64,000 bases of DNA, taken from the NCBI GenBank assembly GCA_902625325.1, contig CACOAW010000002.1, positions 84,347 through 148,346 of the forward strand. The letters run 5' to 3'. Below, piece after piece: positions 2,753 to 34,161 of this stretch (position 1 is its first letter; each line of letters opens with the position of its first letter). Under the pieces are notes generated by a model that was not told the origin of the DNA, did not search any database, and saw nothing but the letters and a program-made list of their open reading frames with translations. Source of the stretch: an uncultured Candidatus Poseidoniales archaeon. GTDB lineage: Archaea; Thermoplasmatota; Poseidoniia; Poseidoniales; Thalassarchaeaceae. Position numbers and translations under genes: made by a program.

Positions 2753-2778
2753 TCAGATAGGCATTTTGTACACGTAAA

Positions 2779-2812
2779 GGCACCTTGGCGGTCTTCGGCC
2801 CGCCAAGGTGCC
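2779..2812 (+). terminator. Perfect 13-bp stem / 8-nt loop hairpin between the binding-protein gene and the permease gene (candidate intercistronic attenuator or mRNA stabiliser)
   Basis: GGCACCTTGGCGG (2779-2791) and CCGCCAAGGTGCC (2800-2812) are exact reverse complements. The hairpin starts 27 nt after the SBP stop codon. This placement is typical of ABC operons where the SBP is expressed in excess. Confidence 0.5.
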
Positions 2813-2877
2813 CCCAACAACAATGATTACTCCGACACCCCCACACATGGGAGGAAGTCAGGCCGGGGGGAAGGAAG

Positions 2878-10911: not shown

Positions 10912-13098
10912 ATGACAATAGCGATTCATGATTCCCATTCTAGATGGAGAACATTCCTTGAGGACGCAAAGGAAGATGAGATAACATCAATCCTTGCCAG
11001 ACAACTTACAAACCCGGTAATGGAGATTTCTTTCCATGAACTCGAATCCTTTGATCCAGATTTCGCAGAATCAATAATCGAACATCCAGAAACAATCCTA
11101 AAATCAGGCTCTCATGTTCTGAGAGAAATTTGTCAGGAAAGAGGAGAATCAATATTTGTTGATATCAGATTGATAGAACTTCCACGAGATAGAAGAGTCG
11201 CCTTACGAGACGTTGGAAGAGATCAGATAGGAATGCTATGTAGCACTGAGGCAGTTATCACAAAGATATCCGAAATTAAACCCCGCATCCACCTCGCTAA
11301 ATTTAAGTGCGAATCCTGTGATTTTATTCAAGAGATAGAACAGAACAACGAGAGAGAACTCAAGATTCCAGTAGTCTGTCCACAAGCGACAGGTGGTTGC
11401 GGGTCGTCTACAAAGAGTGAGGGAGTTAGATTTGAACTTCAAATGGATCAATCCAGACTTGTAAATAATCAATGGATGGAGATTCAAGAACTTCCAGAGC
11501 AGGTTCCAAGCGGTGCACAGCCAGGCCGAGGCCTCCTACTGATTGAAGGTGACCAAGTAAACAAGCACCTACCAGGAGAGCGTGTTACAGCCAATGTAAT
11601 TCCAACCGTAAGATCCGAGGTGAAGAAGGGCAAGAAAACCCCCTTGTTCGATATAATTTACCAGCTTGTTAGCTCCGAGCAAGAAAGTACACCCTTCAAC
11701 GAGATTTCCATCGATGAAGAAGACATCGAGATTATTCTCTCCATTTCTAAACGTGAAGATTTACTAACACTGATGAGGGATTCAATTGCTCCTGGTATTT
11801 TCTCCGTAGGGCAAATTCCTCTCGTAAAGCGATCACTAGCTCTCCAATTGTTTGGTGGAGTTGCTAGAATTAACCCCGACAGAACTAGACTTAGGGGAGA
11901 TATTCATATTCTAATTATGGGAGATCCAGGAGTTGCAAAATCTCAGTTATTGCAGTACATGTCAAAGATTTCTCCCAGAGGTAAATTGGCATCCGGTGGG
12001 GGCGTTTCAGGTGCCGGACTCACTGCAGCAGCCGTAAAGGATGCATTCAGTGACGGACGGTTTGCATTAGAGGCTGGAATTCTACCTCTCTCAGACAGAG
12101 GTTTGGCGGCTGTTGACGAGTTCGATAAGATTTCAACAGATGATAGAAAAACCATGCATCCTGCAATGGAGCAACAACAGATCTACGTAGCAAAGGGCGG
12201 CATTACTGCCACGCTTCCTGCAAGATGCTCTGTTCTAGCGGCAGCAAATCCGAAGAAGGGACGATTTTCTACCCAATCAAATAGAACAAGATCGATTATG
12301 AAACACTACAAGGAAACAGACTTACCAGACGCTCTAGCCTCCAGATTCGATATAATTTGGATGCTTCAGGACGAAGCCAGGGTAGAGGATGACGAAAGGA
12401 TTGCCAAGCATATTCTTAGTACTAGAGCCAAAGCAGTAAGCGAGGCATTAATTGAGGAAGGACAGGAATTGAGCCCCTCTCTAGAACAGGAAGAAATGGT
12501 TATTGCTAGGGGCGTGGACAACAAGGAGTATCTCACAATTCCGTTTCTTAGAAAGTATATTGCTTACGCTAAGAGAAATATCCACCCTAATTTAGACGAT
12601 CAAGCTTCAACAAAGATCTGGGAATATTACAGAGACGCCCGACTTTCGTCTGCAACTGATGATAGGAATATGATGAATAGAGACGACAATATCAACGATG
12701 AGAAAGTAATTTCAGTAACTGCTAGAGCGTTAGAGTCTCTGATTAGGTTGACAGAAGCGCATTCTAGGATGCACCTGAGGCAAACAGCAACGACTGAGGA
12801 TGCCGATATGGCCATTGCGATTTACAAACATTGGAGAAATGAAGCCAACATCTTAGATGAAGCAGAAATGCACTCAAACGTGTCCACGAGGAATCGAAGG
12901 GACAGGGGAGCAGTAAGGGGAATAATCCGAAACTTATGTTCCGAGAGCCCAAATGGAATAACTCCTCTAGTTGACATCTATAATGACGCAGCGAAAATGA
13001 ACATAACTGAAGAATTCGTAAACGATGTTCTCGAAAAGATGACAATAAGCGGGGAATTGTTTTGTCCTGGATTGGATAAATACAGTTTTGTCCGCTGA
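10912..13098 (+). CDS. mcm: MCM replicative helicase
   Basis: Zn motif 'CESCDF....VVCPQATGGC', Walker A 'IMGDPGVAKSQLL', Walker B 'AAVDEFDK', the arginine-finger region 'SRFDIIW', and a C-terminal winged-helix-like tail. At 728 aa with no interruption of the motifs, there is no intein. Confidence 0.95.
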   Translation: MTIAIHDSHSRWRTFLEDAKEDEITSILARQLTNPVMEISFHELESFDPDFAESIIEHPETILKSGSHVLREICQERGESIFVDIRLIELPRDRRVALRDVGRDQIGMLCSTEAVITKISEIKPRIHLAKFKCESCDFIQEIEQNNERELKIPVVCPQATGGCGSSTKSEGVRFELQMDQSRLVNNQWMEIQELPEQVPSGAQPGRGLLLIEGDQVNKHLPGERVTANVIPTVRSEVKKGKKTPLFDIIYQLVSSEQESTPFNEISIDEEDIEIILSISKREDLLTLMRDSIAPGIFSVGQIPLVKRSLALQLFGGVARINPDRTRLRGDIHILIMGDPGVAKSQLLQYMSKISPRGKLASGGGVSGAGLTAAAVKDAFSDGRFALEAGILPLSDRGLAAVDEFDKISTDDRKTMHPAMEQQQIYVAKGGITATLPARCSVLAAANPKKGRFSTQSNRTRSIMKHYKETDLPDALASRFDIIWMLQDEARVEDDERIAKHILSTRAKAVSEALIEEGQELSPSLEQEEMVIARGVDNKEYLTIPFLRKYIAYAKRNIHPNLDDQASTKIWEYYRDARLSSATDDRNMMNRDDNINDEKVISVTARALESLIRLTEAHSRMHLRQTATTEDADMAIAIYKHWRNEANILDEAEMHSNVSTRNRRDRGAVRGIIRNLCSESPNGITPLVDIYNDAAKMNITEEFVNDVLEKMTISGELFCPGLDKYSFVR

Positions 13099-13102
13099 GC
13101 CT

Positions 13103-15163
13103 ATGAGTCCATTCCCCTTCCAGGTATCCAAGATGGAGCCAATAGGGGACGTAACGAATCCCGAAGATCTTGATTCAGTAGCTCTTGGATTCATGTGCGG
13201 GCTGGAGATTCATCAGCAGTTGGCTACCGACAAATTACACTCTAGAATGCCAAGCGAACTTTTCGACTACAAGTCCGAGGACATCCCTCATCACTGGCCG
13301 CGCTCCACAAGAAGGCTCCGAGCCTCTCAGGGAGAAGGAGGGAGTACAGATGTAGCCGCTAGATTCGAGCAAAGGAGGAATCGGACATTCGAGTATGTCC
13401 AATCTCCCAATGCCAGTCTCATCGAGTTGGACGAGTCGCCACCAAGAAACCATGACTCTGAGGCAGTAGATGTTGTTCTCACTATGGCCGCTCAAATGGG
13501 TGCAAAACCAATCCCAAACCTGCAAGCGATGAGGAAGACGGTAGTGGATGGCTCCAACACCAGTGGTTTCCAGAGAACAACGATTGTGGCTACTGATGGA
13601 CAAATAGAGGCCGGCTCTAGCCTGGTTGGAATCGACTTGATTTCGTTGGAGGAAGACTCTGCTCGGAAGCTCGAGACCAAGAGGAGCGATGTCGGAGAAA
13701 CTGTAGTGTACAATCTAGACAGGCTGGGCGTCCCTCTAGTGGAAGTCGCTACTGCTCCAGATGTCCGTACTCCGGAGCATGCAAAGGAGACCGCATTGGC
13801 ACTGGGCCGCCTGCTTCGTGATACTCGCAGGGTCAGGAGGGGGCTAGGGTCAATCAGACAAGACCTCAATGTCAGCATCTCTTGTGGAGATAGGGTCGAG
13901 ATCAAAGGATGTCAGGACCTAGACTGGATTCCGAGAATAATTCGATTAGAGATGGCTCGCCAACTCCATTTCTACCGTCTGGCAAATGAACTGAGAAGCG
14001 AGTTCTCCCTCCCTCCCCTTCCTCCGGATAGGGGATCTGACTCGATGCCAGTGGAGAATAGGGTAGAACTTGCCACGAAGAAGAGAATACCCTACTCTAC
14101 TTACGATGTGACAGAATTCTTCACAGAATGTGACTCAGACATGGTACAATCGTCCTTGCAGAATGGCTATTGTATCCTCGGAATATCCCTTCCAGGATTC
14201 TCAGGAAAGATCGGAAGGAAGACCACGGACGAAAAAGGCTCACAGTTGCCAAGATTGGGAAGGGAGCTAGCCAGTGCCGCCAAGCTTGCTGGGGTATCGG
14301 GAATCTTCCATTCTGACGAACTCCCCGCATACGGGATTTCTCAAACTGAGGTCAACTCGGTCAGGAGTCAACTGTCTCTTTCAGAAGACGACGCATTCGT
14401 TCTATGCATGGCTCCAAAATGGCAGTCCGAACTGGCATTAGAGGCAGTCGTTGACAGGGCACGACTGGCCTTCCACAGGATACCCAGAGAGGTGAGGAAC
14501 GTAGTGGTACGGAAGGGGAAGCCGGAAGATGGAACGACAACGGCCCTAAGGCCTCTCCCAGGAGGCGCTAGGATGTATCCCGAGACAGACATACCAGTTC
14601 TGGAAATCTCACCAGAGAGATGGGATTACATTTGCAAAAACCTTCCACTCTCCGCACAGGAAAGGAAGAATAGACTGTCAGGTCTGGGGCTATCTGAAAA
14701 TCAGGAAGAGGCGTTGCTGAACGGGGAAATCGATGACCTGCTATTTGAGGGAATCGAGGGCCCCCTTAAACTTCCAGCCAAGGCGTGGGCTAGCGCGCTT
14801 CTAGAGACTGGCACCTCCAAACCAAACTCCCTAGCTGCGTCCGTTCACCTTCGAGCGGAGGGCCTCCTGACAAGAGAGGGAGCGGAGACCCTCCTAATGG
14901 AATCAGTAGAGGGTCCAATTGAGAGAATGGTGGACTTCATGTCGTCGGAAGCCGAATCACGAGGCTTCGTTCCGGCCGATGAGTCATCTGTTGAGGATGC
15001 AGTGACCGAGGTCCTTAGCAATCGCTCCGACTTTGTAAAAGAAAAGGGAATGGGAGCAGTCGGACCACTTATGGGGATGGTGATGCAGAATCTAGGCGGT
15101 TCTGCGGATGGGAAACTTGTAAGCAAGATTCTCAGGGATAGGATTTCCGAGATGATTGAATAA
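13103..15163 (+). CDS. gatE: Glutamyl-tRNA(Gln) amidotransferase subunit E
   Basis: 'GLEIHQQL' lies near the N-terminus, followed by 'NLDRLGVPLVEVATAPD', 'GLGSIRQDLNVSI', and a GatB/YqeY-like C-terminal tail. The ATG at 13103 is 5 nt after the mcm stop. The TTG at 13088 and the ATG at 13133 are alternative starts. Confidence 0.9.
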   Translation: MSPFPFQVSKMEPIGDVTNPEDLDSVALGFMCGLEIHQQLATDKLHSRMPSELFDYKSEDIPHHWPRSTRRLRASQGEGGSTDVAARFEQRRNRTFEYVQSPNASLIELDESPPRNHDSEAVDVVLTMAAQMGAKPIPNLQAMRKTVVDGSNTSGFQRTTIVATDGQIEAGSSLVGIDLISLEEDSARKLETKRSDVGETVVYNLDRLGVPLVEVATAPDVRTPEHAKETALALGRLLRDTRRVRRGLGSIRQDLNVSISCGDRVEIKGCQDLDWIPRIIRLEMARQLHFYRLANELRSEFSLPPLPPDRGSDSMPVENRVELATKKRIPYSTYDVTEFFTECDSDMVQSSLQNGYCILGISLPGFSGKIGRKTTDEKGSQLPRLGRELASAAKLAGVSGIFHSDELPAYGISQTEVNSVRSQLSLSEDDAFVLCMAPKWQSELALEAVVDRARLAFHRIPREVRNVVVRKGKPEDGTTTALRPLPGGARMYPETDIPVLEISPERWDYICKNLPLSAQERKNRLSGLGLSENQEEALLNGEIDDLLFEGIEGPLKLPAKAWASALLETGTSKPNSLAASVHLRAEGLLTREGAETLLMESVEGPIERMVDFMSSEAESRGFVPADESSVEDAVTEVLSNRSDFVKEKGMGAVGPLMGMVMQNLGGSADGKLVSKILRDRISEMIE

Positions 15164-20343: not shown

Positions 20344-23300
20344 ATGAGCAACCGCATTGAACACAACAGGACTCCAGCACTAACCATTGCCATTCTATTT
20401 CTGGGCATGGCATTGTCCGTGGGATTACACCAACAAAGTGGGGAAATACTCGACAATGAGCCAACCTCAATGGAGACCCATTCTGGGCTTAATATGCCGG
20501 GTTCTACGGTAGGATCAATATACTCTCTAACCGCACTGGGAGCGTCCCATGGCTATACCTGCGCTGTCTTAGACAACAACGAAATGAAATGCTGGGGGAA
20601 GGCAGAAAACGGATCACTAGGGAATGGTGATGATAGCCAAAATCAGTATACTCCGGTAGGGGTAAATGAACTGAACTCGGGTACTTGTTGTTTTTCCGAT
20701 ATCGAGGAGACGAGCCCAGACGGGGACCACTCTTGCGCTCTCTCCGATGGTTCAGTCTACTGTTGGGGCCTAGACACGGCCGGACAAATAGGGCATGGCC
20801 ATCTGAGTTGTGTCGGTAATGGATACTGCGTTAACCCACACGGTCCATCGGTTTTGAATAGAAACATCGTGACCTTCACAACCGGCCTTAGACACACATG
20901 CGCGATAGCAGACGACTCGACCGCATGGTGCTGGGGAGAGAACGACTTTGGACAACTCGGAGTTGGCGACAATGACGACAGGAACGCTCCGACCCAGGTC
21001 TTGTTGCCAGCTGGAACGACACCAATCTCGATTAACGCAGGTGGGCATACCACATGCGTCATCTTGGACAACGGAACTGGCCTTTGCTGGGGCAAGAGCG
21101 ATTACGGACATCTCGGAGACGGAACTTACAACAACAGGAATGAGCCAACTGCAATCTCAATACTCCCTTCGAACAGGTCACTGGTCGCAATGGATTTGGG
21201 TGCTGGCCACGCATGCGGAATCCTGGACGACGGCACGGCTCACTGTTGGGGCAACGGCACCTTCTCCTCTGGAGAGTCCGGAGGTCGGTTGGGCGACGGC
21301 TCCAACGAGAGCTCCAGGTTCCCTCGAAGTGTCTCACTTCCGTCTGGAAGAAACGCTATTTCGATAGACGTGGGCGTCGATCACACATGCGCAATACTGG
21401 ATGACAGCAGTGCAGTCTGCTGGGGCCTGAACGAAGAGGGACAGCTTGGCGATGGTACCACTTCCAACAGTACGACGCCGGTCAACGTATCCCTTCCGCT
21501 CGGCTTGACCTTTGGGGAGATCTCGGCAGGGCTGTCTCACACGTGCGCAGTGGCAACAAATGGCTCCGTTTACTGCTGGGGGGATCATGAGGAAGGGGCT
21601 CTGGGTCTGGGGGAGGATGTGGATAGCGATGTCCCAGCCTACGTCGACTTGGGTACAGATAGACACGCTCTGATGAGCGAACGGGATAACGACGATGATG
21701 GCATTGTGAACATCCTTGACCCGTTCCCCGACGGATGCCCCTCAGGACATTACGCAACGAACGGCACTTGTGAATTGGTCGAGCCAGGCCACTACACAAA
21801 CGACCTACCGCCATATGAGCGATTCACCTGTCAACCAGGAACCTACCAACCGAGTTACGGCCAGCTGGATTGCATAGACGCAAGTCCCGGTCACTACGTA
21901 ACCGAACCTGCCTCTGCATCTCAAATCCCGTGTGCAGTAGGAAGCTACCAACCGGACTCAGGCGAGCTATCTTGTATCCAATCCGATCCAGGTAACTACG
22001 TCTCAGATGAAGGTTCGATACGCCAAAATCAGTGCTCTCTAGGAACCTATCAACCATCTTCAGGGGCAGCAGATTGCATAGACGCAAGTCCCGGATACTA
22101 CGTTAACGACTTCGCGTCGGAAGAACAGACCCCCTGCGCAGCAGGAACGTACCAGATTCTGTCGGGAGCAACCTCGTGTTTCCAAGCCGGACCGGGATTC
22201 CACGTCCCATCAGAGGGATCGGACTCCCAGCAGCAATGCCAACCGGGAACATTCTCCTCCCAGCAGGGGCAGGCAGACTGCACCGAAGCCTCACCAGGGT
22301 ATTTCGTAGTTGGTGTGCAGCAAAACTCACAATCCGCATGTCAGCCGGGCGAGTTCCAAGATACACCAGGGCAGACCTCCTGCCTTTCAACCACTCCCGG
22401 GCACTACACAGACTCGGAGGGCTCGGCAGAGCAGACCCAGTGTCCCGCTGGAACCTACCAACCCGACTCAGGACAGACATTCTGCATAGAAGCAGAACCA
22501 GGATTCTACTCCGATTTAGGCTCTACATCGCAGATCCAATGCCAGAACGGCACATACTCATCTGAGCCAGGGCAGGGGTCCTGCACCCCATCAGAGCCTG
22601 GGTTCTTCGTGGACCTGGACGGAGCCACTGGGCCGACTCCATGCCCTCCTGGACAGTTCCAGTCGGAATCAGGGTCATCCGGATGCGAGACGCCTCCCCC
22701 GGGCCAGATAGCCAGTCCGGACGGATCGGCCACGGTTGCATGCCCAGCTGGAAAGTACCAGCCCGGTGACCAGTCGATTTGCGTGGACGCTTCTCCCGGA
22801 TACTTCGTCAATGAAACTGGATCTTCATCCCAGAGCCCGTGTTCGCCTGGCACATATCAACCAGATTCGGGACAATCATCGTGCCTACCCGCAAATCCCG
22901 GCAACTTCATCGACACTCCAGGGTCATCAAGCCAGACACCATGCCCAACTGGTCAGTTCCAGTCTTTCGGTGGCCAGCAATCATGCACTCCTGCCATGGC
23001 AGGTCATCATGTACCTGAAGAGGGGGCGATGTCCCAAACCTCGTGCAAGGCAGGTAATTACCAGCCGGACGAGGGCATGGAAAGCTGCATACCATCAGAC
23101 CCTGGTTACTTCGTTCCTTCATCAGGCGCGATATCCCAGAGTCCCTGTCAACCCGGTAACTACCAGTCAGAGGGAGGTAAGGCAGGGTGCCTACCTGCCG
23201 ATCCCGGGAACTACGTCTCTCAAGCCGCATCAACTGAGCAGACCAAGTGCCCTTCTGGACAAGAGCAGGAGCTCAGTGGCCAGGCTTCATGCATCGATGT

Positions 23301-23460
23301 TGAGAGGCCCCTGTGGATGTCGATATTGATGTTCGGAGTTCCAGCCATACTGGCAGGAACCATGGCAATCCTCTACATATCCAATAAGAAGAGTGCCGGT
23401 CCAAGAGGCAAAGGAAAGTCATACATGTACTCCGAGGACATAAGAAAGAAGCAGCCCTAG
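20344..23460 (+). CDS. Large surface protein: N-terminal signal/anchor, 7-blade RCC1-like beta-propeller, ~16 Cys-rich GCC2/GCC3 (ephrin-receptor-like) repeats, C-terminal TM anchor
   Basis: There are seven 'CWG....G.LG.G' units, then a repeated 'C..G.YQ...G...C....PG.(Y/F)V...GS..Q..C' unit. An N-terminal hydrophobic segment 'ALTIAILFLGMALSV' is present, as is a C-terminal TM 'WMSILMFGVPAILAGTMAILYI' followed by a basic tail. Confidence 0.8.
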   Translation: MSNRIEHNRTPALTIAILFLGMALSVGLHQQSGEILDNEPTSMETHSGLNMPGSTVGSIYSLTALGASHGYTCAVLDNNEMKCWGKAENGSLGNGDDSQNQYTPVGVNELNSGTCCFSDIEETSPDGDHSCALSDGSVYCWGLDTAGQIGHGHLSCVGNGYCVNPHGPSVLNRNIVTFTTGLRHTCAIADDSTAWCWGENDFGQLGVGDNDDRNAPTQVLLPAGTTPISINAGGHTTCVILDNGTGLCWGKSDYGHLGDGTYNNRNEPTAISILPSNRSLVAMDLGAGHACGILDDGTAHCWGNGTFSSGESGGRLGDGSNESSRFPRSVSLPSGRNAISIDVGVDHTCAILDDSSAVCWGLNEEGQLGDGTTSNSTTPVNVSLPLGLTFGEISAGLSHTCAVATNGSVYCWGDHEEGALGLGEDVDSDVPAYVDLGTDRHALMSERDNDDDGIVNILDPFPDGCPSGHYATNGTCELVEPGHYTNDLPPYERFTCQPGTYQPSYGQLDCIDASPGHYVTEPASASQIPCAVGSYQPDSGELSCIQSDPGNYVSDEGSIRQNQCSLGTYQPSSGAADCIDASPGYYVNDFASEEQTPCAAGTYQILSGATSCFQAGPGFHVPSEGSDSQQQCQPGTFSSQQGQADCTEASPGYFVVGVQQNSQSACQPGEFQDTPGQTSCLSTTPGHYTDSEGSAEQTQCPAGTYQPDSGQTFCIEAEPGFYSDLGSTSQIQCQNGTYSSEPGQGSCTPSEPGFFVDLDGATGPTPCPPGQFQSESGSSGCETPPPGQIASPDGSATVACPAGKYQPGDQSICVDASPGYFVNETGSSSQSPCSPGTYQPDSGQSSCLPANPGNFIDTPGSSSQTPCPTGQFQSFGGQQSCTPAMAGHHVPEEGAMSQTSCKAGNYQPDEGMESCIPSDPGYFVPSSGAISQSPCQPGNYQSEGGKAGCLPADPGNYVSQAASTEQTKCPSGQEQELSGQASCIDVERPLWMSILMFGVPAILAGTMAILYISNKKSAGPRGKGKSYMYSEDIRKKQP
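20521..21655 (+). repeat. Seven RCC1 repeats (protein-level)
   Basis: CWGKAENGSLGNG, CWGLDTAGQIGHG, CWGENDFGQLGVG, CWGKSDYGHLGDG, CWGNG...GGRLGDG, CWGLNEEGQLGDG, CWGDHEEGALGLG. Confidence 0.8.
21736..23292 (+). repeat. ~16 tandem ~32-aa Cys-rich repeats (GCC2/GCC3-like)
   Basis: The first Cys codon is at 21736 and the last at 23290-23292. The spacing of C/PG/Y(F)/Q residues is regular throughout. Confidence 0.75.
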
Positions 23461-25630: not shown

Positions 25631-28600
25631 TTGAATAACCACCGCCGAGCATGCCCAACGCTCGGAGATGACGATTTGCCAACAACGGAACACTCTGTGA
25701 CTATCGAGGAGGTCCCACCTGGGGGGATACCGGACTGGTTGAAACAACACATCCGACTTCAGTCCCTAGGAAAACCTAGCAATGACTCAAACCGCCATGG
25801 GAGAATTCTCATTATTTACCCAACAGAGAAATCCAAGAGACAAGCACTGTCATCAACAGACCTCAGAGGAGCCATAGATCGTACCCTCCATCACACCATG
25901 GATTCCCTGATTTCTTCACTGGTCGCAGATCTGAGGCTACCTCGAGTAATCTCCAACCAAGGTCCACTCAGTGCCATCATTCACACCGAGTGTCAGAAGG
26001 AGTCCTCGAGGCTGGGATTCCCGATGATCAACCCGCTACCAGAGATGAAGTGGGGCAAGGGCAAGACAGAGGCACTAGCAAACCTCCATCACCACCTTTC
26101 CAGGGAGTTGGTAGCTGAGAGGTGGGAAGGACCCGGTATACCCACATTCAGGAGGGTAATCACCAGACTCGAGGAGAAACTTCGATTCACACACCCGGAC
26201 ATGGTATGCGAACGGATCATCGATGCTCTGAAGGATGGAAGAATACCATTCACCATTTCGGATATAGACGGCATAATTATGCTCGATCACTCGCCGTCGA
26301 TGTACAAATCTCACACCCAGATTCTCCTGTCCCTTTCGAAGATAAGACCGATACATCAGCTTACATATCCCGGAAACTTTCGCATAGGTCACCATGGCCA
26401 TATGCTATTGGATCAACACCCAATAAGGGTCCCGGATGGCCTTCCCGATTGGGTACCCTCCCAGAGAACCCATCTTCGAGGCCCAACCACATCCGTGAAT
26501 AGGATTCTGCTTGACAGAGAGGCACACTCCTTCGAGGCAACAGCACGTATCGTCGCCGACAGACTAAGCAGAGAGGAATCCGAGATAATCATCGTAGACC
26601 CCGCCTTGGAGAACAACAGGCGAAAGTGGGAGCAAATTCTGGGTGATATCGGTATCACCATCGACAGGGGGTGGGCAAAACCATCGTCCCATTCCATCGG
26701 GCATTGGCTTCTGTTCCTGGCGAAATTGGGCCACGGAGCCGATGCTTTTTCCCTCAGTAGTCTCAGGTCGTTATCCCTTCAGACCTCAATCGTGCCATTT
26801 GGGGAGCTAGCGGAACACCCATTTGATCCCGAAATCTCCTGTTTGGCAGACTCGGAATTACTCACCAAGATGGCCAGGAACGAGCATGTCCTAGGCGGAC
26901 CCGGGGCCCTCTCTAAATGGGTGGAAACCCTCTCCAGACCTCCAAAACACGAAAGAGACGGACCGAGAAAAGAAGCCGCACAATGGTGGCTTATGAGCCT
27001 CGCAGCTTCCATAAGGCCGCTACTAAGAGAGCCTGACCGGAAATTAGTTGCAAACCTGACTGAAGTTGTTGGATGCCATTCAGGAGCCAAACTCCCGCTT
27101 CCGGATGCCCCGCAGGATGGAGATGAGTGGTTACAAAGAACGCTATCCCTAATTGATATTCCAGCCCATATGGACCGATTCTCGGGCAGGGGCCTATCCC
27201 CAGCGGCGGTAATCGAAGCCCTGTCTAAAGAGAGAGATACCTTGAGGGCGATGCAGAGACAGTCAGGTCATGCGCCTCCAAAACTAGGTTGGGATTGGGT
27301 GGAGGAACTCCATTTTATAGCGGACCAGACCAAAGCCAGGACCGGTGGTTCCAATTTTACGTGTGGAATTTCGGTGTTGACTCCTGATGAAGCCTTGGGT
27401 TGTTCAGCGGATTTAGTGGTGCTATCAAACTTATCTAGCTCATCATGGGAATTGAGAGTACCAAAGGTGCCCTTCGTTGGTGAGGATGAACGACACGCAC
27501 TTGGAATACTCAGACCAGACGCTACAATCAGAAACGCCAGACATAATCTACTTCACTTATTGAACTGCTCATCGGAGGCATTCGTCCTTGACCCGACCGC
27601 TGACGAAACCTCTCCACCTGCTGCGCCGATAAGGGAGTGGGCCGAGGATTTTGAGGCAAGAGGATTGGATAGCCAAACGTACGAAACCTCAGAGTGGACA
27701 TATTCCCCAAGACGCCTCAGGCAGGTTGACGGACTCAGAATAAGACAAGGCAAGCCCCCAAATCAATCTCCAATCAACCCCAGCGCGGTATCAATACCCC
27801 TTGACCAAATCCTCCAAAGGGACCGTGAGAGGAGACAACCGTTCATGCCTTCCAATGACGGATACCTGCCCGAGGAAAACATTCAGCACCTACTCTCCAT
27901 CGAGAAGTTCAAACTTCACGGCAAGGCACCACCAGGGATAGAAAATCCCAGAAACAACGTCAGATGGCCGGTGGTGGGAGCAACAATAAACGGAAAGAGA
28001 ACTCCTTCGATTGACCCCAGGCCCTTCTCACCAATGGCTACAGGTGTACGCGTTAGTGATTCCAGAAACGGGCACTCCGGGGAGACGGCTCAGGAGATAC
28101 CGGTCTGGTCCCCGACTCGACTCCAGACTTGGTCAAGATGTCCGAGAATGGGATGGCTGAAAAGAGAATTAGGCGCTGAAAGAGAGGACCTACAATCAGA
28201 GGACATAGACAATAGGACGTATGGGGAACTGCTTCACAGTGTTCATCACGACATAGTCACGCAGGTCTTGGGGTTCGGGACCAGCGAAGAAAGGGCGCAT
28301 GACGGTGGCAAGGGTCACATCAGCGTCCAAAGATCGGGTTTGGATCAAACCGAGATCATGCGAATCGCCCTAGAGTCTCTGGACTCCCTAGCTCCTTGGT
28401 TAGAAAGAACTGACGCCGTCTCGACTCAAAGACTCAGATCTCTGACTGGCATGGACAGGAATGAGTGGAACAGCTGGATAGCAGACCCAAAACCAATCCT
28501 CCCTAGGGGGAGGATTGGGGGCCTGGTAACGGCGGAGCTTGAGATCGGCGATTCCGCTCCCATCTCTATAGAATGGAGAGTCAGAAAGGGTGCCTTGGAC

Positions 28601-29242
28601 TACATCCAAATCAATCCAACTCCTGAGATATTAGAAAGGAATGAATCTGATCCAATCAGAGTCAGGGGATGGATAGACAGGGTGGATGTACTCCCAATGG
28701 ATTTGGACTCACAGGTCTGGGTGGATAATGAAGGGAGCGAAACGGTAGCACCGATCAGAATCAAGGGTTCCGGCTGGAAACCAAAACGGCTGATTGCAAT
28801 CAGAGACCTGAAGACATCTGAGACTAACTCCCAAAGGAACAGACACTATCAGGGCCTTCTCGAAGAGCTTCAACTTGCGGTTTATGCCAGGGCATGGGAG
28901 GAAGCCCACCCTGGAGACCTAGTAGTAGCAACCGGAATTTCGGTAATCGGACCCAAATCAAACCACTTTTTGGAGGTGTCTCAGATGCTCGAATCTTCTC
29001 AATCAGGAATCAACATCGGTACGAAAACTACGGTCACGTCCTATCTCCACAGATTCGCGGATGAGGACGAGGATGCTGACTCCGATCATTTTAGAGCATG
29101 GTTAGCCCAACGACTTTCTGTAGCAATGGGAGTAGCTAACAATGCCAAGAAGGGTAAGGTGACCCCAACCCCATCCTCCAGAGTGTGTAGTTATTGCCCC
29201 GTGGGGGAGTTCTGCGATGTTAGGATGGGGGGGTCTTTCTGA
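25631..29242 (+). CDS. addB: AddB/RexB-like helicase-nuclease subunit (RecB-family nuclease with Fe-S staple cysteines)
   Basis: PD-(D/E)XK core 'IAIRDLKTSE' and 'QLAVYARAW'. Cys in 'WSRCPRMGW' (28139-28141) plus 'CSYCPVGEFC' (C-x2-C-x5-C, 29186-29215) matches the AddB 4Fe-4S arrangement. It lies immediately upstream of an AddA-type gene. The start is uncertain (TTG 25631 or GTG 25697). Confidence 0.75.
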   Translation: MNNHRRACPTLGDDDLPTTEHSVTIEEVPPGGIPDWLKQHIRLQSLGKPSNDSNRHGRILIIYPTEKSKRQALSSTDLRGAIDRTLHHTMDSLISSLVADLRLPRVISNQGPLSAIIHTECQKESSRLGFPMINPLPEMKWGKGKTEALANLHHHLSRELVAERWEGPGIPTFRRVITRLEEKLRFTHPDMVCERIIDALKDGRIPFTISDIDGIIMLDHSPSMYKSHTQILLSLSKIRPIHQLTYPGNFRIGHHGHMLLDQHPIRVPDGLPDWVPSQRTHLRGPTTSVNRILLDREAHSFEATARIVADRLSREESEIIIVDPALENNRRKWEQILGDIGITIDRGWAKPSSHSIGHWLLFLAKLGHGADAFSLSSLRSLSLQTSIVPFGELAEHPFDPEISCLADSELLTKMARNEHVLGGPGALSKWVETLSRPPKHERDGPRKEAAQWWLMSLAASIRPLLREPDRKLVANLTEVVGCHSGAKLPLPDAPQDGDEWLQRTLSLIDIPAHMDRFSGRGLSPAAVIEALSKERDTLRAMQRQSGHAPPKLGWDWVEELHFIADQTKARTGGSNFTCGISVLTPDEALGCSADLVVLSNLSSSSWELRVPKVPFVGEDERHALGILRPDATIRNARHNLLHLLNCSSEAFVLDPTADETSPPAAPIREWAEDFEARGLDSQTYETSEWTYSPRRLRQVDGLRIRQGKPPNQSPINPSAVSIPLDQILQRDRERRQPFMPSNDGYLPEENIQHLLSIEKFKLHGKAPPGIENPRNNVRWPVVGATINGKRTPSIDPRPFSPMATGVRVSDSRNGHSGETAQEIPVWSPTRLQTWSRCPRMGWLKRELGAEREDLQSEDIDNRTYGELLHSVHHDIVTQVLGFGTSEERAHDGGKGHISVQRSGLDQTEIMRIALESLDSLAPWLERTDAVSTQRLRSLTGMDRNEWNSWIADPKPILPRGRIGGLVTAELEIGDSAPISIEWRVRKGALDYIQINPTPEILERNESDPIRVRGWIDRVDVLPMDLDSQVWVDNEGSETVAPIRIKGSGWKPKRLIAIRDLKTSETNSQRNRHYQGLLEELQLAVYARAWEEAHPGDLVVATGISVIGPKSNHFLEVSQMLESSQSGINIGTKTTVTSYLHRFADEDEDADSDHFRAWLAQRLSVAMGVANNAKKGKVTPTPSSRVCSYCPVGEFCDVRMGGSF

Positions 29243-32200
29243 TTCGCCTAAATACAGCCCAGCGTCTGGCTCTGAATCTTGATTCACACATCGTAATTGA
29301 CGCTGGTGCAGGAACCGGAAAGACAAGCACCATCGTTGATAGGGTTATTGAGCACTATTTAGCGAGTGACCAGAGAGCGACGAGAATCCTACCAAAACCG
29401 TCTAGGGCATCAAATATTGGAGAGGGAATGGTTACCGCACCCGCTTCCGAGAGAACCAATCTGCAGGATTGGGACGGCCTATTGCCGAGCGAGGTAGTCC
29501 TGCTAACTTTCACCAACAGAGCAGCCGACGAGATGAAGGACAGGCTCCGACGCACAATCTCGAGGGTAAGGCCCGGCCCTCTCGGAGACGACGGGGAACA
29601 TCGCTACGATCCCCGCATAAAGAGCCAAGGATTCATCGAGCAACTCCTTACTCTGCTAGAAGACGCTCCTATCGGTACGATAGACTCTTTCCTGTCTCAG
29701 TTAGTTTCTCCCTACAGGGGGAAACTTGGAAACGTCCTCAGCAAGGAGAACATATCTGACTCCGCGAGAGCAATAATGGTGGAGCAGGCCCTCAAGACGA
29801 TATGGAGGCTGCCAAAAAACAGATCCAAAATCGGGGACGCGGTTGACGCTGGTATACCCGCACACATTGCTTCCGATGTCCTCTCGGCGAGAGACCGTGT
29901 CGCTCAGCACTATTCTGGTAGAACTTCCGCTTCCAGAGTGCTGAGATCTCTGGTAGGGAAGTCAGTGTTCGTGGAAGAGTCATCACGCAAAATAATGGAT
30001 GAGAACGGTGACGTGGATAGAAATAGACTGCTCGCTATGATCATGTCATCGATAGAAGATACACAAATCAATGAGCAAGCCGATAGAGTAGCCACAACCG
30101 TCGGAGAAATCTTTGACACAATCAAGGAATGCATCCAGACCCCGTCCTCATCCGGCTGGGCACCAGAAACCAGGATGGCCTGCCTGGAAGAACTCGTCAG
30201 AAAGGGGCCCCCTACGGATACTTGGGAAAAGCTCTGCTGGATGGGGCACCTGCTTACATGTACTGTTAGCCAATCAAGCCTGATGACAAAGGAAATGAAA
30301 CACTTCCCGGGAATGAAATTGCCATCTGATGAGTGGGATGCTGGAATTAAAAGCTATGCTGAGATAAAAGATCCAAACCTCAAGGCACTGTACAAAACCA
30401 ATGTGAGAGGGAAAGCAACAGAGTTGTCTTCTATATGGTCAGATGAGTTGGGAAGCATAGTACTACATTTCGTGAGGATTGCCTTGCTGCTGGGGGAATC
30501 AAAACCTCCTCACGTCCCTGATGGGTGGTCAAAGCCGACCGTTAAACTTCCCGCAGAACTTCCAGATAGACTCGAAAAGCCTAACAAGACCCACCATTTC
30601 AGTCTCGAAGCCGAAATCCAGAATCTAAACGACCTCCACCTTTTACACCTGGGATTTCAGGGCGTTATGAAGAACCTAAAGCTACGGGACGATGTCCACG
30701 ATTTCGATGATATCCAGAGACTAGCTGGAGATTTGCTGCTCGCGAATTGCCCAGAGGTTTGCCGGACCTTCTACCATCCCAGTGTCCAACAGGCTTTGGA
30801 CTCGATTGACCAAGAACGTCCTTGGAGGGATGATCATGTGCATAGAGCGCTGAAAGCCCTTTCCGTTTTGGAAGAAAACCCCGAGCTTGCTGGTGAGGCA
30901 GCATCGAGACTGGTAGCAATGCGGGCCGATATCGAAAGTAGACACCTTTTGTTAGGCCAAATCAGAAGGAGATTCAGGGCATTCATTATCGACGAGGCTC
31001 AGGACAACTCGCCACTGCAATGGAGACTCCTATCACGTCTCTGGGGACCCAGGGAATTAAGGGATGAGGATGCTCCTAGGCCGGACACACCATGGGAACC
31101 AACTGTATGTTATGTTGGAGACGTAAAACAAAGCATCTATGCCTTTAGGCAGGCGGAAGTGACAGGGTTCCTAGACTTCGCAAAGTCTCTGAGGGCAGTA
31201 AACATTCACGAATTCTCCAGTGTATCGGAACTAACCAGAAAACCATCACTCAGGAAGGAAACTCACAGCAGAGATCCCAGGAACGACCATCATTCCTCTA
31301 TAGCCAGGGCCACCGAGCACATGGAGCGGGGTGGCAGGGATTTGGTGCCTTGGATTCCATTCGATGCAACCGACTGGGACCTTCCAGCCCCAACCTCAGA
31401 GGAGGTAAAGGCCCGTAAAGAAGGGATGATATCTCTGAAGGTAAATTACCGCTCTTCTGGAGGACTATTGGGGGTTATGAACGAATGGTGGGAAGACGTC
31501 TTCTCCGAAAGGCATAGGACATTTCCAAACGCTGACTTCTATGCATCCCCCCAGACACTGCACTCATTCCCCGAAAAGCGAGATATCCCCGGACTAATAG
31601 AGTGGATTTGCCCTCCAGACTCTGAGAATTCATCAGACCCACCAACTGATCTGGAGATGCATTTGGACCCCTTCGGACCAGGTAACACCGACCGGTTAGA
31701 GAGGCAGGCTACGTTAATCGCAATGAGGGTCAGGAGCCTCATTGAGGGGAGCCCCGTAAGGGTCAGGTCATCCTCTGGAGAGTGGAAAGAGGCAGATTCG
31801 TCAGAACCCGTCCGTCCAAGTGACATAACAATTCTATTGCCCAACAGGGTAAATCTCAGGGACGTGATTGTCAGGAATCTGCAAGATTTAGACGTTCCAT
31901 ACCAGGTAGACCGGGAGGGAAGTCTGATGGAACGCCCAGCAGTGTCGGCCTTAGAGGGCCTAATTCAATTCGTAGCTAGGCCACATTCTCGTTATTATGC
32001 CACATGGGTCGCGCGCTCCCCGCTGATCGGAATGAGTGACGGACAACTACAGAGGTACCTTTCGTCATCAGACGATGGCGAGGACCTCCTCTCGATCATG
32101 ATCTCCCACTGCGATAGTGAGAGGCAGAGATCGTTAGTCTCTCGGTGGCGCGAACTCTCATCTTCCTCCCTGCTGGGGGAACTTCTCCAGGACACAATAG

Positions 32201-34161
32201 ACCGCTCAGACCTCCTTATCGCACTTCCTGACGAGGTGTCTCGCCAGGACGCGGAGCAATTCTGCGATCTATTCAGTGAATTGTCAAATCAGGTAGGGGG
32301 GGATCCCATAGTCCTAGCAGACTGTCTTAGAGACCTCAGAGAAAACCCCTCCCAATCGATAGAAGCATCCACGGTCCCGCAAGGCGATGCTGTCAGGGTA
32401 ATGACTATTCACAGTTCCAAGGGGCTTGAGGCAAAGGTGGTCGTTCTTGCTGACCTATTCTCCTCTAGACAGACCAATATGAGAAATGAGCAGAATAGCC
32501 GGTTGATAGTCGGACCCGAGATGTATGCTGGCCACCCGAAGCCATGGCCAATGGGGAAGGCACCGATGTCAGCGCTCTGGGAACACGCATCCTTACTTCA
32601 CAGAGCAAGGAAGAATGCTGAGGCTAGGAGACTGTTGTACGTAGCAGCCACGAGAGCAGAGGAGCGGCTAATCATAGCCGGATCGCCCACAGGGACGATT
32701 TGGATAGATGGAGAGGGGTTAACATTTCCATGGACTTACGACAAGTCAGCACCCCAACTCGGGCAGATGTGGTTAGAGTCCCTCAGAGCTGGGTCATTGC
32801 GGAGGGGGGAAGAGGGTTCCCCTTGGCTGAGTCAGACCGATATGGGGTCCGAACCAGTCCTTGAGAGCAGAGGTAGCAGAACCTTATGCCCCGCAGCGAT
32901 CATGGACAATGGGTACCTAGGGTTCAGGAAAAAGACGGGCATCAAAATTCTACATCACCCAGAGTGTTTTACCGATACTGGAACGGGCGGAAGCCAGATT
33001 ACCACGCCGCTTCAGAGAATCAGAATAATCGACGAATCATCTCGGAGCGATCCAACGAACGGTGCCGAATCTCCCTCACTCAAGCCAATTCGATACTCCA
33101 CGACAGTGAAGGCGAATCCCAGCAAGCTCCCGTCCTACTACGATTGCCCGAGGTGCCAATGGATGGAGTTGAGGGCAGGTTTGGAATCAACAGGGGCCGT
33201 CAGAAACGATGAGGCTGAGGATCATACAGGACAACCCCTGTCGGTGGATCCTGCAACATTCGGGAACGTTTTCCACAGGATCGTCGAGATTGGAATCGGG
33301 AACCCTGGACCAATGCAGAATGGCCCAACCACTCCTCTCCCAAGGTCATGGACCACTCCCACGGAGGATAAAATCAACGACAAAGAGACACATCAAATCG
33401 CATTCAGAGAATTACTCCCACCGGGAGCCGACCTCTCAAGGGTTGCAGAGGCCGTTTCAATCATGGCCCGCAGAGTCTCTGAAGGGAAATTGGGGGCCAT
33501 GGTCACAGGTCAGGAGGTGGATGGGAGAAGGGTAGAGGGTCTGAGAACTGAGATGCCATTCCAAATATCCATCCCCACACAATTTGAATCTGTGACGCGG
33601 AGTAAGTGGACACCAGATGGTGATGAAGTGCTTATCTCATTCGATTCCACTAGAATCGAGCTAAGCGGAATCATAGACTTGGTTGTATGCACTCAGAGCG
33701 ATGACGGGGCCCCAGCAATCCGGGCCATTGACCTGAAAACTACGGATGCAAGCTCCCTACTTGGAGACTGGGAAAGTGGGCTTCTGGACTCTCTAGATGA
33801 TGACTCAATCGGGCCCTCTTGTCAGGCTGAGGAATCCCTGCTAAACAAGCACAGGCTGCAGATGGCTCTCTACCATCTAGCATTGGAAGAGTCGGAGTCG
33901 GACAAGGAGCGCGAGGGACTACCTAGGCGGAAGGTCCTCCCTCCGGCGATACTAGTTGGGGTTTCTGGAAGGCTAGTGGAGTATCCCTCCGAGACCCTCG
34001 AAAAGGCCAAGAAGGACCTGGAGAAGACGCTTGCTCTGACTGCTAGGATGTCATTAGCCTCAGAGTTCCCCTTATCCGTCGTAGAGAAGGACTACGAGGA
34101 TCGGATTTCGAAGTGCAGGAACTGTTCGATTTCAGAGGAAATCGAGTCGAAGAGTCCATGA
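29239..34161 (+). CDS. addA: AddA/RexA-like SF1 (UvrD/PcrA-type) helicase with C-terminal RecB nuclease; the start codon is unresolved (first canonical start is 29428, downstream of the Walker A box)
   Basis: Motif I 'DAGAGTGKT' (29299-29325), Ia 'TFTNRAADEM', II 'IIDEAQDNS' (DEAQD 30991-31005), III 'VGDVKQSIYAFRQA', IV 'VNYRSS', V 'MTIHSSKGLEAKVV', VI 'LLYVAATRAEERL'. The nuclease region carries 'IRAIDLKTTD' (DLK 33730-33738) and 'QMALYHLAL'. The frame is open from 29224. The start given here is the CTG at 29239 and is tentative. Confidence 0.8.
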   Translation: MIRLNTAQRLALNLDSHIVIDAGAGTGKTSTIVDRVIEHYLASDQRATRILPKPSRASNIGEGMVTAPASERTNLQDWDGLLPSEVVLLTFTNRAADEMKDRLRRTISRVRPGPLGDDGEHRYDPRIKSQGFIEQLLTLLEDAPIGTIDSFLSQLVSPYRGKLGNVLSKENISDSARAIMVEQALKTIWRLPKNRSKIGDAVDAGIPAHIASDVLSARDRVAQHYSGRTSASRVLRSLVGKSVFVEESSRKIMDENGDVDRNRLLAMIMSSIEDTQINEQADRVATTVGEIFDTIKECIQTPSSSGWAPETRMACLEELVRKGPPTDTWEKLCWMGHLLTCTVSQSSLMTKEMKHFPGMKLPSDEWDAGIKSYAEIKDPNLKALYKTNVRGKATELSSIWSDELGSIVLHFVRIALLLGESKPPHVPDGWSKPTVKLPAELPDRLEKPNKTHHFSLEAEIQNLNDLHLLHLGFQGVMKNLKLRDDVHDFDDIQRLAGDLLLANCPEVCRTFYHPSVQQALDSIDQERPWRDDHVHRALKALSVLEENPELAGEAASRLVAMRADIESRHLLLGQIRRRFRAFIIDEAQDNSPLQWRLLSRLWGPRELRDEDAPRPDTPWEPTVCYVGDVKQSIYAFRQAEVTGFLDFAKSLRAVNIHEFSSVSELTRKPSLRKETHSRDPRNDHHSSIARATEHMERGGRDLVPWIPFDATDWDLPAPTSEEVKARKEGMISLKVNYRSSGGLLGVMNEWWEDVFSERHRTFPNADFYASPQTLHSFPEKRDIPGLIEWICPPDSENSSDPPTDLEMHLDPFGPGNTDRLERQATLIAMRVRSLIEGSPVRVRSSSGEWKEADSSEPVRPSDITILLPNRVNLRDVIVRNLQDLDVPYQVDREGSLMERPAVSALEGLIQFVARPHSRYYATWVARSPLIGMSDGQLQRYLSSSDDGEDLLSIMISHCDSERQRSLVSRWRELSSSSLLGELLQDTIDRSDLLIALPDEVSRQDAEQFCDLFSELSNQVGGDPIVLADCLRDLRENPSQSIEASTVPQGDAVRVMTIHSSKGLEAKVVVLADLFSSRQTNMRNEQNSRLIVGPEMYAGHPKPWPMGKAPMSALWEHASLLHRARKNAEARRLLYVAATRAEERLIIAGSPTGTIWIDGEGLTFPWTYDKSAPQLGQMWLESLRAGSLRRGEEGSPWLSQTDMGSEPVLESRGSRTLCPAAIMDNGYLGFRKKTGIKILHHPECFTDTGTGGSQITTPLQRIRIIDESSRSDPTNGAESPSLKPIRYSTTVKANPSKLPSYYDCPRCQWMELRAGLESTGAVRNDEAEDHTGQPLSVDPATFGNVFHRIVEIGIGNPGPMQNGPTTPLPRSWTTPTEDKINDKETHQIAFRELLPPGADLSRVAEAVSIMARRVSEGKLGAMVTGQEVDGRRVEGLRTEMPFQISIPTQFESVTRSKWTPDGDEVLISFDSTRIELSGIIDLVVCTQSDDGAPAIRAIDLKTTDASSLLGDWESGLLDSLDDDSIGPSCQAEESLLNKHRLQMALYHLALEESESDKEREGLPRRKVLPPAILVGVSGRLVEYPSETLEKAKKDLEKTLALTARMSLASEFPLSVVEKDYEDRISKCRNCSISEEIESKSP

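Follow-up and report, generated by a model that had tools for sequence, protein, structure and literature searches.

The window analysed here is a 64,000-nucleotide (nt) stretch of DNA from an uncultured Candidatus Poseidoniales (Marine Group II, MGII) archaeon. Positions 25631-34161 on its plus strand are filled by two long co-oriented open reading frames (ORFs), the first encoding an AddB-like protein (gene 1, 25631-29242) and the second an AddA-like protein (gene 2, 29239-34161). The original prediction, made from the sequence by itself, had taken the two for a bacterial-type AddAB double-strand-break resection machine with two subunits, two nucleases and one motor. That design is upheld by the AddB-like fold predicted for the first protein, by the best scores of the second on addA and recB models, and by the adjacency of the two genes in every locus compared. 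The AddAB assignment follows from four traits taken together: a single active motor, two nucleases with intact sites, a partner subunit that combines a dead helicase with a cysteine staple, and the order B then A. With a probability of roughly 80%, the pair is an AddAB-type heterodimeric helicase-nuclease that is inherited vertically in Marine Group II (Poseidoniales) and belongs to the core functions of this group. Its distinctive features are that it is a core pair, that it holds a fixed chromosomal position across a whole archaeal order, and that it is extremely divergent; its annotation so far is only generic.

The distribution of the pair was surveyed by scanning one genome per prokaryotic species for relatives of the B protein. 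A relative was found in 344 species genomes. All locus-level counts given below (adjacency, flanks, start codons) refer to the best 80 of these 344, all of which are Poseidoniales/MGII.

Sequence features of the AddB-like subunit

The product of gene 1 is 1203 amino acids (aa) long when read from TTG 25631, or 1181 aa from GTG 25697. An identical database copy (P0001) is called from GTG 25697, and the start of the gene is hence uncertain. A total of 133 full-length homologues were retrieved. Family alignments comprised 19, 24 and 66 sequences, the last extending to 25% identity.

PDDEXK_1 is the sole Pfam match of the protein (E 1.6e-16, aa 1054-1196). It marks a RecB/Cas4-type nuclease with a four-cysteine "staple" at 28130-29215 on the plus strand. 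The layout begins with C837 in a CPR motif (WSRCPRMGW, 28130-28156), continues through IDRVD, RDLKT (IAIRDLKTSE, 28793-28822) and QLAxY (QLAVYARAW, 28871-28897), and ends with C1186-x2-C1189-x5-C1195 (CSYCPVGEFC, 29186-29215). The motif strings quoted in the original prediction, for this protein and for its partner, are all located at the expected places. The catalytic residues and the cysteines are invariant or nearly so in all three alignments. Across the 66 homologues, three of the staple cysteines are invariant and the fourth is present in at least 90%. A RecB-family nuclease with an AddB-style staple, as had been claimed, is therefore well founded, and the four-cysteine module is presumably an iron-sulfur (Fe-S) site.

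The N-terminal region is of a different nature. The protein had been said to lack a canonical GxxxxGK[ST], and indeed neither this Walker A motif nor any helicase-family match was found in it in the Pfam and NCBIfam searches. Walker A is also missing from all of its homologues in the alignments (up to 66 sequences). At 25802-25840 (plus strand) lies a degenerate P-loop position, RILIIYPTEKSKR, which has the strand-loop-helix of a Walker A site without the GK[ST]. The structural model described below places a strand at residues 37-41 and a helix at 44-53 (P0001 numbering). The residues at this position read IIYPTEKSKR, and the helicase-like scaffold would therefore be dead, as in RecC. Walker A is likewise absent from the B-type subunits of Thermus plasmid, Deinococcus and haloarchaeal pairs.

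Between the helicase-like scaffold and the nuclease, aa ~690-825 (window ~27700-28100) form a block with the strongly conserved, family-specific motifs LQRDRERRQP, RWPVVG, IDPRP and DSRHGH. The block is confidently folded in the second of the two structural models, and to our knowledge it has no recognised counterpart in AddB.

Predicted structure of the AddB-like subunit

A first AlphaFold2 (AF2) run using 24 close homologues gave a poor model, with a predicted local distance difference test (pLDDT) score of 62, yet AddB chains already ranked first among its matches. A confident model (pLDDT 88.9, predicted template-modelling score 0.78) was obtained from the 66-sequence alignment because that alignment added members at 25-35% identity. 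When this model was compared with the PDB using Foldseek, the top five matches were the Bacillus subtilis AddB chains 4ceh_B, 4cei_B, 3u4q_B, 4cej_B and 3u44_B. These matches run over the full length, with E-values of 1e-20 to 5e-20 and template-modelling (TM) scores of 0.55-0.58 on both normalisations. No other match has a TM score >0.5 on both normalisations. The identity to B. subtilis AddB in the structural alignment is ~11-12%. UvrD, PcrA and Rep match the helicase-like part only. According to the model, then, the AddB-like subunit has the global AddB fold with inactivated N-terminal SF1 helicase-like domains.

Weaker but significant structural matches were obtained with AdnA (TM 0.41-0.54, E 1.5e-14) and RecC (TM 0.41-0.45, E 1.9e-12), so that an AdnAB-type or RecBC(D)-type enzyme has to be considered in place of an AddAB-type one. 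The score of the recB model on the A subunit, about the same as that of addA_Gpos, points the same way. Such an assignment is nonetheless very unlikely, given that the AddB chains match best and in both normalisations. The nuclease-like domain of RecC is catalytically dead, whereas the archaeal B subunit retains an intact nuclease site and the four cysteines; furthermore, RecBCD has three subunits, one of them the SF1B motor RecD, and no recD-like gene is adjacent to the pair in the window or among the called genes of two related loci (L081 and L084), the rest of the genome not having been searched. Mycobacterial AdnAB (6PPR, 7SJR, 9NP6), the second-best structural match, is likewise a heterodimer of helicase-nuclease-like subunits. 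As far as the accessible part of the AdnAB study goes (PMC8789073), AdnA, the non-lead subunit, holds an Fe-S cluster at the fork and keeps a nucleotide-binding motor-like domain, and no cluster is described for the lead motor AdnB. The archaeal B subunit, in contrast, has no such nucleotide-binding domain, and the archaeal A subunit has four cysteines of its own.

The AddA-like subunit

Gene 2 (29239-34161, plus strand) encodes a protein of ~1640 aa, as defined by its open frame, by the starts of its homologues and by Pfam and NCBIfam matches. It contains a superfamily 1A (SF1A) UvrD-type helicase core with motifs I-VI at 29302-32658. The motifs are I (Walker A, AGAGTGKT, 29302-29325), Ia (29500-29535), II (IIDEAQD, 30985-31005), III (VGDVKQSIYAFRQA, 31114-31155), IV (NYRSS, 31444-31458), V (HSSKGLE, 32410-32430) and VI (YVAATRA, 32638-32658), and the motif residues are invariant in the 18 homologues over which conservation was judged. 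The Pfam matches are UvrD-helicase (2.6e-32), UvrD_C (6e-14), AAA_19 (6.6e-12) and PDDEXK_1 (3.1e-10). The best curated models are addA_alphas (1e-43), recB (6e-37) and addA_Gpos (8e-37), and the best PDB sequence match is AddA 3u44_A (3.8e-10), with RecB second.

The RecB-type nuclease of this subunit occupies 33142-34125 on the plus strand, with the motifs GIIDLVV, IDLKTTD (33727-33747) and QMALYHL (33859-33879). Residues D1479, D1497, K1499, Q1540 and Y1544 are invariant in the homologues. The nuclease also carries four cysteines, arranged in the window as 2+2: CPRC at 33145-33156 and CRNC at 34114-34125. The homologues always have four cysteines but in three layouts, most as one plus C-x2-C-x9-C, some as one plus C-x-C-x2-C, and the clade of the window as 2+2. 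Judged from this pattern, a compensatory relocation appears to have shifted one metal ligand of the A nuclease out of the C-terminal tail and into the N-terminal motif.

The start of gene 2

The second protein had been described as a full UvrD-type helicase with its own RecB nuclease. All of the motifs are there, but the start listed for it was wrong. The mechanical ORF begins at ATG 29428 while the frame is open from 29224, and Walker A lies upstream of that ATG, in frame; the true start is therefore near 29239-29242. Homologues begin at the codon equivalent to 29239/29242, and the residues upstream of the ATG are conserved at the protein level and therefore presumably translated. However, no ATG, GTG or TTG occurs between the in-frame stop TAG (29221-29223) and Walker A, or anywhere in the frame before 29428. 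The junction reads CTG ATT, where CTG 29239 overlaps the upstream TGA and ATT is at 29242.

A canonical start does precede Walker A in 71 of the 80 loci, mostly as an ATG that overlaps the B stop ("cTGATG"). In 62 loci an ATG occupies the place of the ATT, and in another four an ATG, GTG or TTG takes that of the CTG. Some sister lineages start the A gene one codon earlier, with ATGA, GTGA or TTGA. The window and the eight closest species genomes read CTG ATT or CTG ATC, as do the copy on a Tara scaffold and a related Poseidoniales contig, L083. Initiation of gene 2 is thus likely to occur at CUG or AUU through termination-reinitiation coupling with gene 1. Fusion of B to A by a -1 frameshift on the G-run (29227-29233) was considered as a reason for the missing start codon and rejected, since the run is interrupted in L083 while CTGATT is kept.

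One practical consequence is that, in the clade of the window, gene callers shorten the A protein by 62 residues and drop Walker A from the motor subunit (P0121, 1577 aa). The curated addA and addB models, for their part, miss the family.

Relation to known AddAB-type pairs

The pair shares with B. subtilis AddAB (3U44, 3U4Q, 4CEH, 4CEI, 4CEJ) the B-then-A gene order, an A subunit composed of a UvrD-type SF1A motor and a RecB nuclease, and a B subunit composed of a dead helicase-like scaffold and a RecB nuclease with an upstream Cys and C-x2-C-x5-C. There are also differences. B. subtilis AddB carries an N-terminal Walker A, which the archaeal B subunit lacks. The archaeal A subunit is ~400 aa longer than B. 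subtilis AddA and its nuclease has four conserved cysteines, whereas the B. subtilis AddA nuclease is not known to have a cysteine cluster.

There are precedents for AddAB-like pairs in archaea. A possible transfer of addAB "even into the archaea" is mentioned by Reuter et al. 2010 (PMC2887965), who cite Cromie 2009 for it. A B-then-A pair was found on three haloarchaeal plasmids, Halobacterium salinarum pKBTZ03_58 (L087, 1568-8502), Halapricum desulfuricans pHSR-Est01 (L088, 599-7493) and Haloterrigena salifodinae pHTS96 (L089, 641-7457). Each consists of a PD-(D/E)XK protein of ~1060-1070 aa and an overlapping UvrD-helicase protein of ~1210-1240 aa, annotated as "PD-(D/E)XK nuclease family protein" and "UvrD-helicase domain-containing protein". 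The H. salinarum pair, the only one examined residue by residue, shares with the MGII proteins a B subunit that has C-x2-C-x5-C and no Walker A, but its A nuclease has no terminal cysteine cluster. The haloarchaeal and MGII proteins are only ~23-26% identical, and the genes are plasmid-borne and accessory in the former but form a core chromosomal locus in the latter. The Halapricum pair lies between a "DNA repair exonuclease" and a metallophosphoesterase.

These pairs were compared with the MGII profiles as part of a small panel drawn from plasmid records, which also included pairs from Deinococcus deserti and Thermus. The Thermus comparator counts as an AddAB-like pair only, as it has not been shown to equal the studied chromosomal addAB of strain HB27. 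The haloarchaeal pairs ranked first, followed by the D. deserti pair and then the Thermus pair, and in each case it was the B-type subunit, not the A-type one, that the profile matched. With the haloarchaeal B subunit, hhalign aligned the nuclease domain only (Prob 96, E 2e-9). The four-cysteine site is absent from the A nucleases of the Thermus and H. salinarum plasmids. In D. deserti plasmid 2 (WP_012695219 and split UvrD and PD-(D/E)XK genes), B lacks Walker A, and each of the two nucleases, B and A, has a four-cysteine motif; bacteria thus have the double-cysteine layout as well. The D. deserti pair differs from that of the window in being bacterial and plasmid-borne, its proteins are much shorter, and its A gene is split in the record.

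Several observations weigh against an AddAB assignment. None of the NCBIfam/TIGRFAM addB models matches the AddB-like protein at E<=0.1, and searches of the PDB with the 19- and 66-sequence B profiles returned no AddB, AdnA or RecC. An alignment of the B profile with the Thermus plasmid B-type subunit by hhalign was colinear, yet not significant. The addA models match the A subunit far below their cut-offs (addA_alphas 150 bits versus 861; addA_Gpos 127 versus 708). Thus, among the profiles that the original prediction had named, UvrD-helicase, UvrD_C and PDDEXK_1 match as expected, but addA stays below its cut-offs and addB gives no match. The AddB assignment of the N-terminal two-thirds of the B subunit depends on the predicted structure. 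Finally, bacterial AddAB partners RecA, whereas the host recombinase here would be RadA. A hidden Markov model search of 1.84 billion representative sequences with the B family returned only 259 matches, essentially the family itself. As far as sequence comparison goes, the pair is best described as a divergent AddAB-type family that is not a member by curated sequence criteria.

Genomic context and distribution

The contig is archaeal, because archaeal markers flank the pair on both sides and the guanine-plus-cytosine (GC) content is even. MCM (10912-13098) and GatE (13088-15163) are encoded upstream, and L10P, L1, Spt5-NGN and FtsZ at 45-49.5 kilobases (kb) of the window; an Obg-like GTPase is also encoded. 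The original prediction had placed the pair among archaeal informational genes. This is correct for the window, which contains MCM, L10, L1 and Spt5, but not for the immediate neighbours, which are metabolic or housekeeping genes: a threonine-aldolase-like lyase, a signal-peptide-like protein, an M20 peptidase and a coiled-coil protein. No tRNA and no Rfam matches were found within the 64-kb window.

In all 80 loci, A directly follows B in the same orientation, mostly with overlapping TGA and ATG, and 67-76 of the 80 retain the flanking genes. The 80 genomes include AG-xxx isolates, which we take to be single-cell genomes, and among the surveyed genomes the contigs with the pair reach 1.6-3.0 megabases. 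Marine metagenomes are the source of the homologues of both proteins, with Candidatus Thalassarchaeaceae as the name given to one homologue of A and Euryarchaeota archaeon to one of B. The ratio of nonsynonymous to synonymous substitution (dN/dS) is 0.09-0.12 for both genes, like that of the flanking genes, and both are under purifying selection.

For both proteins, the nearest relatives that have been characterised come from bacteria, which could mean that a bacterial fragment was wrongly joined to, or binned with, archaeal DNA. This is scarcely conceivable. MCM, GatE, L10P, L1, Spt5-NGN and FtsZ stand on both sides of the pair in one contiguous window, the GC content is uniform and ordinary across the region around it, and the same arrangement recurs in 80 independent assemblies. 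In addition, the Tara scaffold, also an independent assembly, is 99-100% identical across the locus and both junctions. The possibility of a chimeric contig, raised with the original prediction, is excluded on these grounds.

A distant locus, L081, lies on a contig of 3,002,195 base pairs with 71% GC (ENA ERZ26167216). It has MCM and GatE upstream, followed by B, A and M20. Its B subunit is 27% identical to that of the window and its GatE 48%. As so distant a locus shares the layout, the pair predates the Poseidoniales radiation. The B protein of L081 (P0276) is the most divergent of the family, and a word-indexed search of a 5.8-billion-protein collection returned no other relative of it at E<=1e-10. 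The suggestion that the system is domesticated and not freshly acquired thus finds support in synteny across Poseidoniales and L081, in ordinary GC and in a dN/dS of ~0.1. The pair is an anciently fixed AddAB-type system, neither a recent acquisition nor a mis-binned fragment.

A literature search returned no paper linking MGII/Poseidoniales to AddAB, RecB, UvrD or Rad50, and the pair is not listed in the main text and four supplementary files (one of them partial) of Deschamps 2014.

An imported allele in the cassette core

Within this conserved setting, the core of the cassette has a separate history in the window. A tract at ~26350-33600, delimited by sliding identity and by synonymous divergence (dS), has both of its breakpoints inside the two genes. 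It is ~75% identical (nt) to the closest genomes as compared with 91-95% for the flanks, and its dS is ~1.2 versus 0.16-0.38 in the flanks with dN/dS unchanged. Among related genomes the window is the sole outlier for the tract, the core of which has a nearer match (87%) in L083, another Poseidoniales lineage. Because identity and dS in the tract differ from those of the flanks and the tract is nearer L083, the cassette core was overwritten by homologous recombination in which the donor was a different species of Poseidoniales. Faster protein evolution or positive selection as a cause of the low identity was rejected, since dN/dS is like that of the flanks and dS is five-fold higher. An "overwrite" of the same kind was inferred for proteorhodopsin by Rinke et al. 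(PMC6461757).

Repair enzyme or defence module

The exchange of the core for a divergent allele between unmoved flanks is a pattern common in genes that are in conflict with viruses. It raises an alternative in which the pair serves mainly to defend against viruses or plasmids by destroying invading linear DNA, and is not a recombinational repair enzyme. The A subunit matches Gabija GajB models in PADLOC (best 4.4e-19), the haloarchaeal plasmid pairs adjoin integrase and restriction genes, and AddAB of Thermus limits transformation (PMC11143384). UvrD-Cas4-type helicase-nucleases are known in defence contexts as well. Hudaiberdiev et al. 2017 (PMC5704561) described such fusions, in bacteria and mesophilic archaea, as single genes that either stand alone or lie next to type III restriction-modification or Dcm/Vsr genes. 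They share with the A subunit a UvrD-type SF1 helicase joined to a Cas4-like, cysteine-bearing PD-(D/E)XK nuclease.

A role primarily in defence is nevertheless unlikely. The GajB matches reflect a generic likeness of the UvrD core and are weaker than those to addA and recB. The UvrD-Cas4 type does not fit either, because the window's helicase-nuclease has an obligate partner subunit of AddB fold and lies in a syntenic housekeeping context. The pair occupies a fixed position between threonine aldolase and M20 peptidase in 80 of 80 loci, not a variable defence island, and in the window it has no restriction-modification, Dcm or other defence genes as neighbours. Its dN/dS is as low as that of its housekeeping neighbours, and no relative of the pair was found among IMG/VR viral contigs. 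Moreover, degradation of foreign DNA is a normal side-activity of RecBCD and AddAB, and is therefore compatible with a repair enzyme of the AddAB type.

Proposed mechanism and significance

For an AddAB-type enzyme, we infer by analogy that the subunits form a heterodimer, which strand each nuclease cuts, that the cysteines bind Fe-S, that a Chi-type sequence regulates the complex and that the product passes to RadA. The complex would bind a double-stranded DNA end, as B. subtilis AddAB does. The AddA-like subunit, with its single active SF1A motor, would move 3' to 5' and unwind the duplex, and its nuclease would cleave the 3'-terminated strand. The nuclease of the AddB-like subunit, held at the fork through its four-cysteine, presumably Fe-S, module, would cleave the 5'-terminated strand. 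The dead helicase-like domains of this subunit may read along the 3' strand in search of a regulatory (Chi-like) sequence, and the resulting 3' single-stranded tail would go to the archaeal recombinase RadA. As in bacteria, such an enzyme would also break down foreign linear DNA that lacks protection.

HerA-NurA with Mre11-Rad50 is presumed to fulfil the same task, a long-range end resection that yields a 3' tail for RadA, but it consists of unrelated proteins, a hexameric FtsK-like translocase and the NurA nuclease. HerA-NurA has been described mainly in thermophiles, and both proteins are absent from Haloferax volcanii (PMC7776575). Long-range resection in mesophilic archaea without HerA-NurA is poorly understood. 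A tentative and rather doubtful extension is that Poseidoniales handed long-range end resection to a bacterial-type AddAB feeding RadA, in a hybrid pathway that replaces or sidelines HerA-NurA and possibly uses a Chi-like sequence of its own. The cassette would then be exchanged between species as a unit, because B and A, and any Chi sequence, must match each other; the imported core in the window would be a case of this.

If the AddAB reading is true, the machine is a concrete candidate for end resection in abundant planktonic archaea, Poseidoniales being the most abundant planktonic archaeal order. An ancient inter-domain acquisition would also mean that archaeal RadA and SSB/RPA are the partners with which the repair machine now has to function. 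Its importance hinges on whether the pair is the main end-resection route in Poseidoniales.

Other features of the window

Two further regions of the window stand apart from the helicase-nuclease pair. A protein of 1038 aa, encoded at 20344-23460, contains RCC1 repeats and ephrin-receptor-like repeats together with a hypervariable stretch. Between 20.5 and 22 kb its gene is 69-80% identical (nt) to the related locus L001, as compared with ~94% around it, and across close genomes this stretch is only 41-86% identical at the protein level. It looks like a fast-diverging surface protein. At 20-7020 the window encodes unusually large components of a branched-chain amino-acid ABC transporter, namely a substrate-binding protein of 910 aa (ANF_receptor/Peripla_BP_6) and a permease of 1380 aa with BPD_transp_2 domains, and these sizes suggest fused or duplicated modules.

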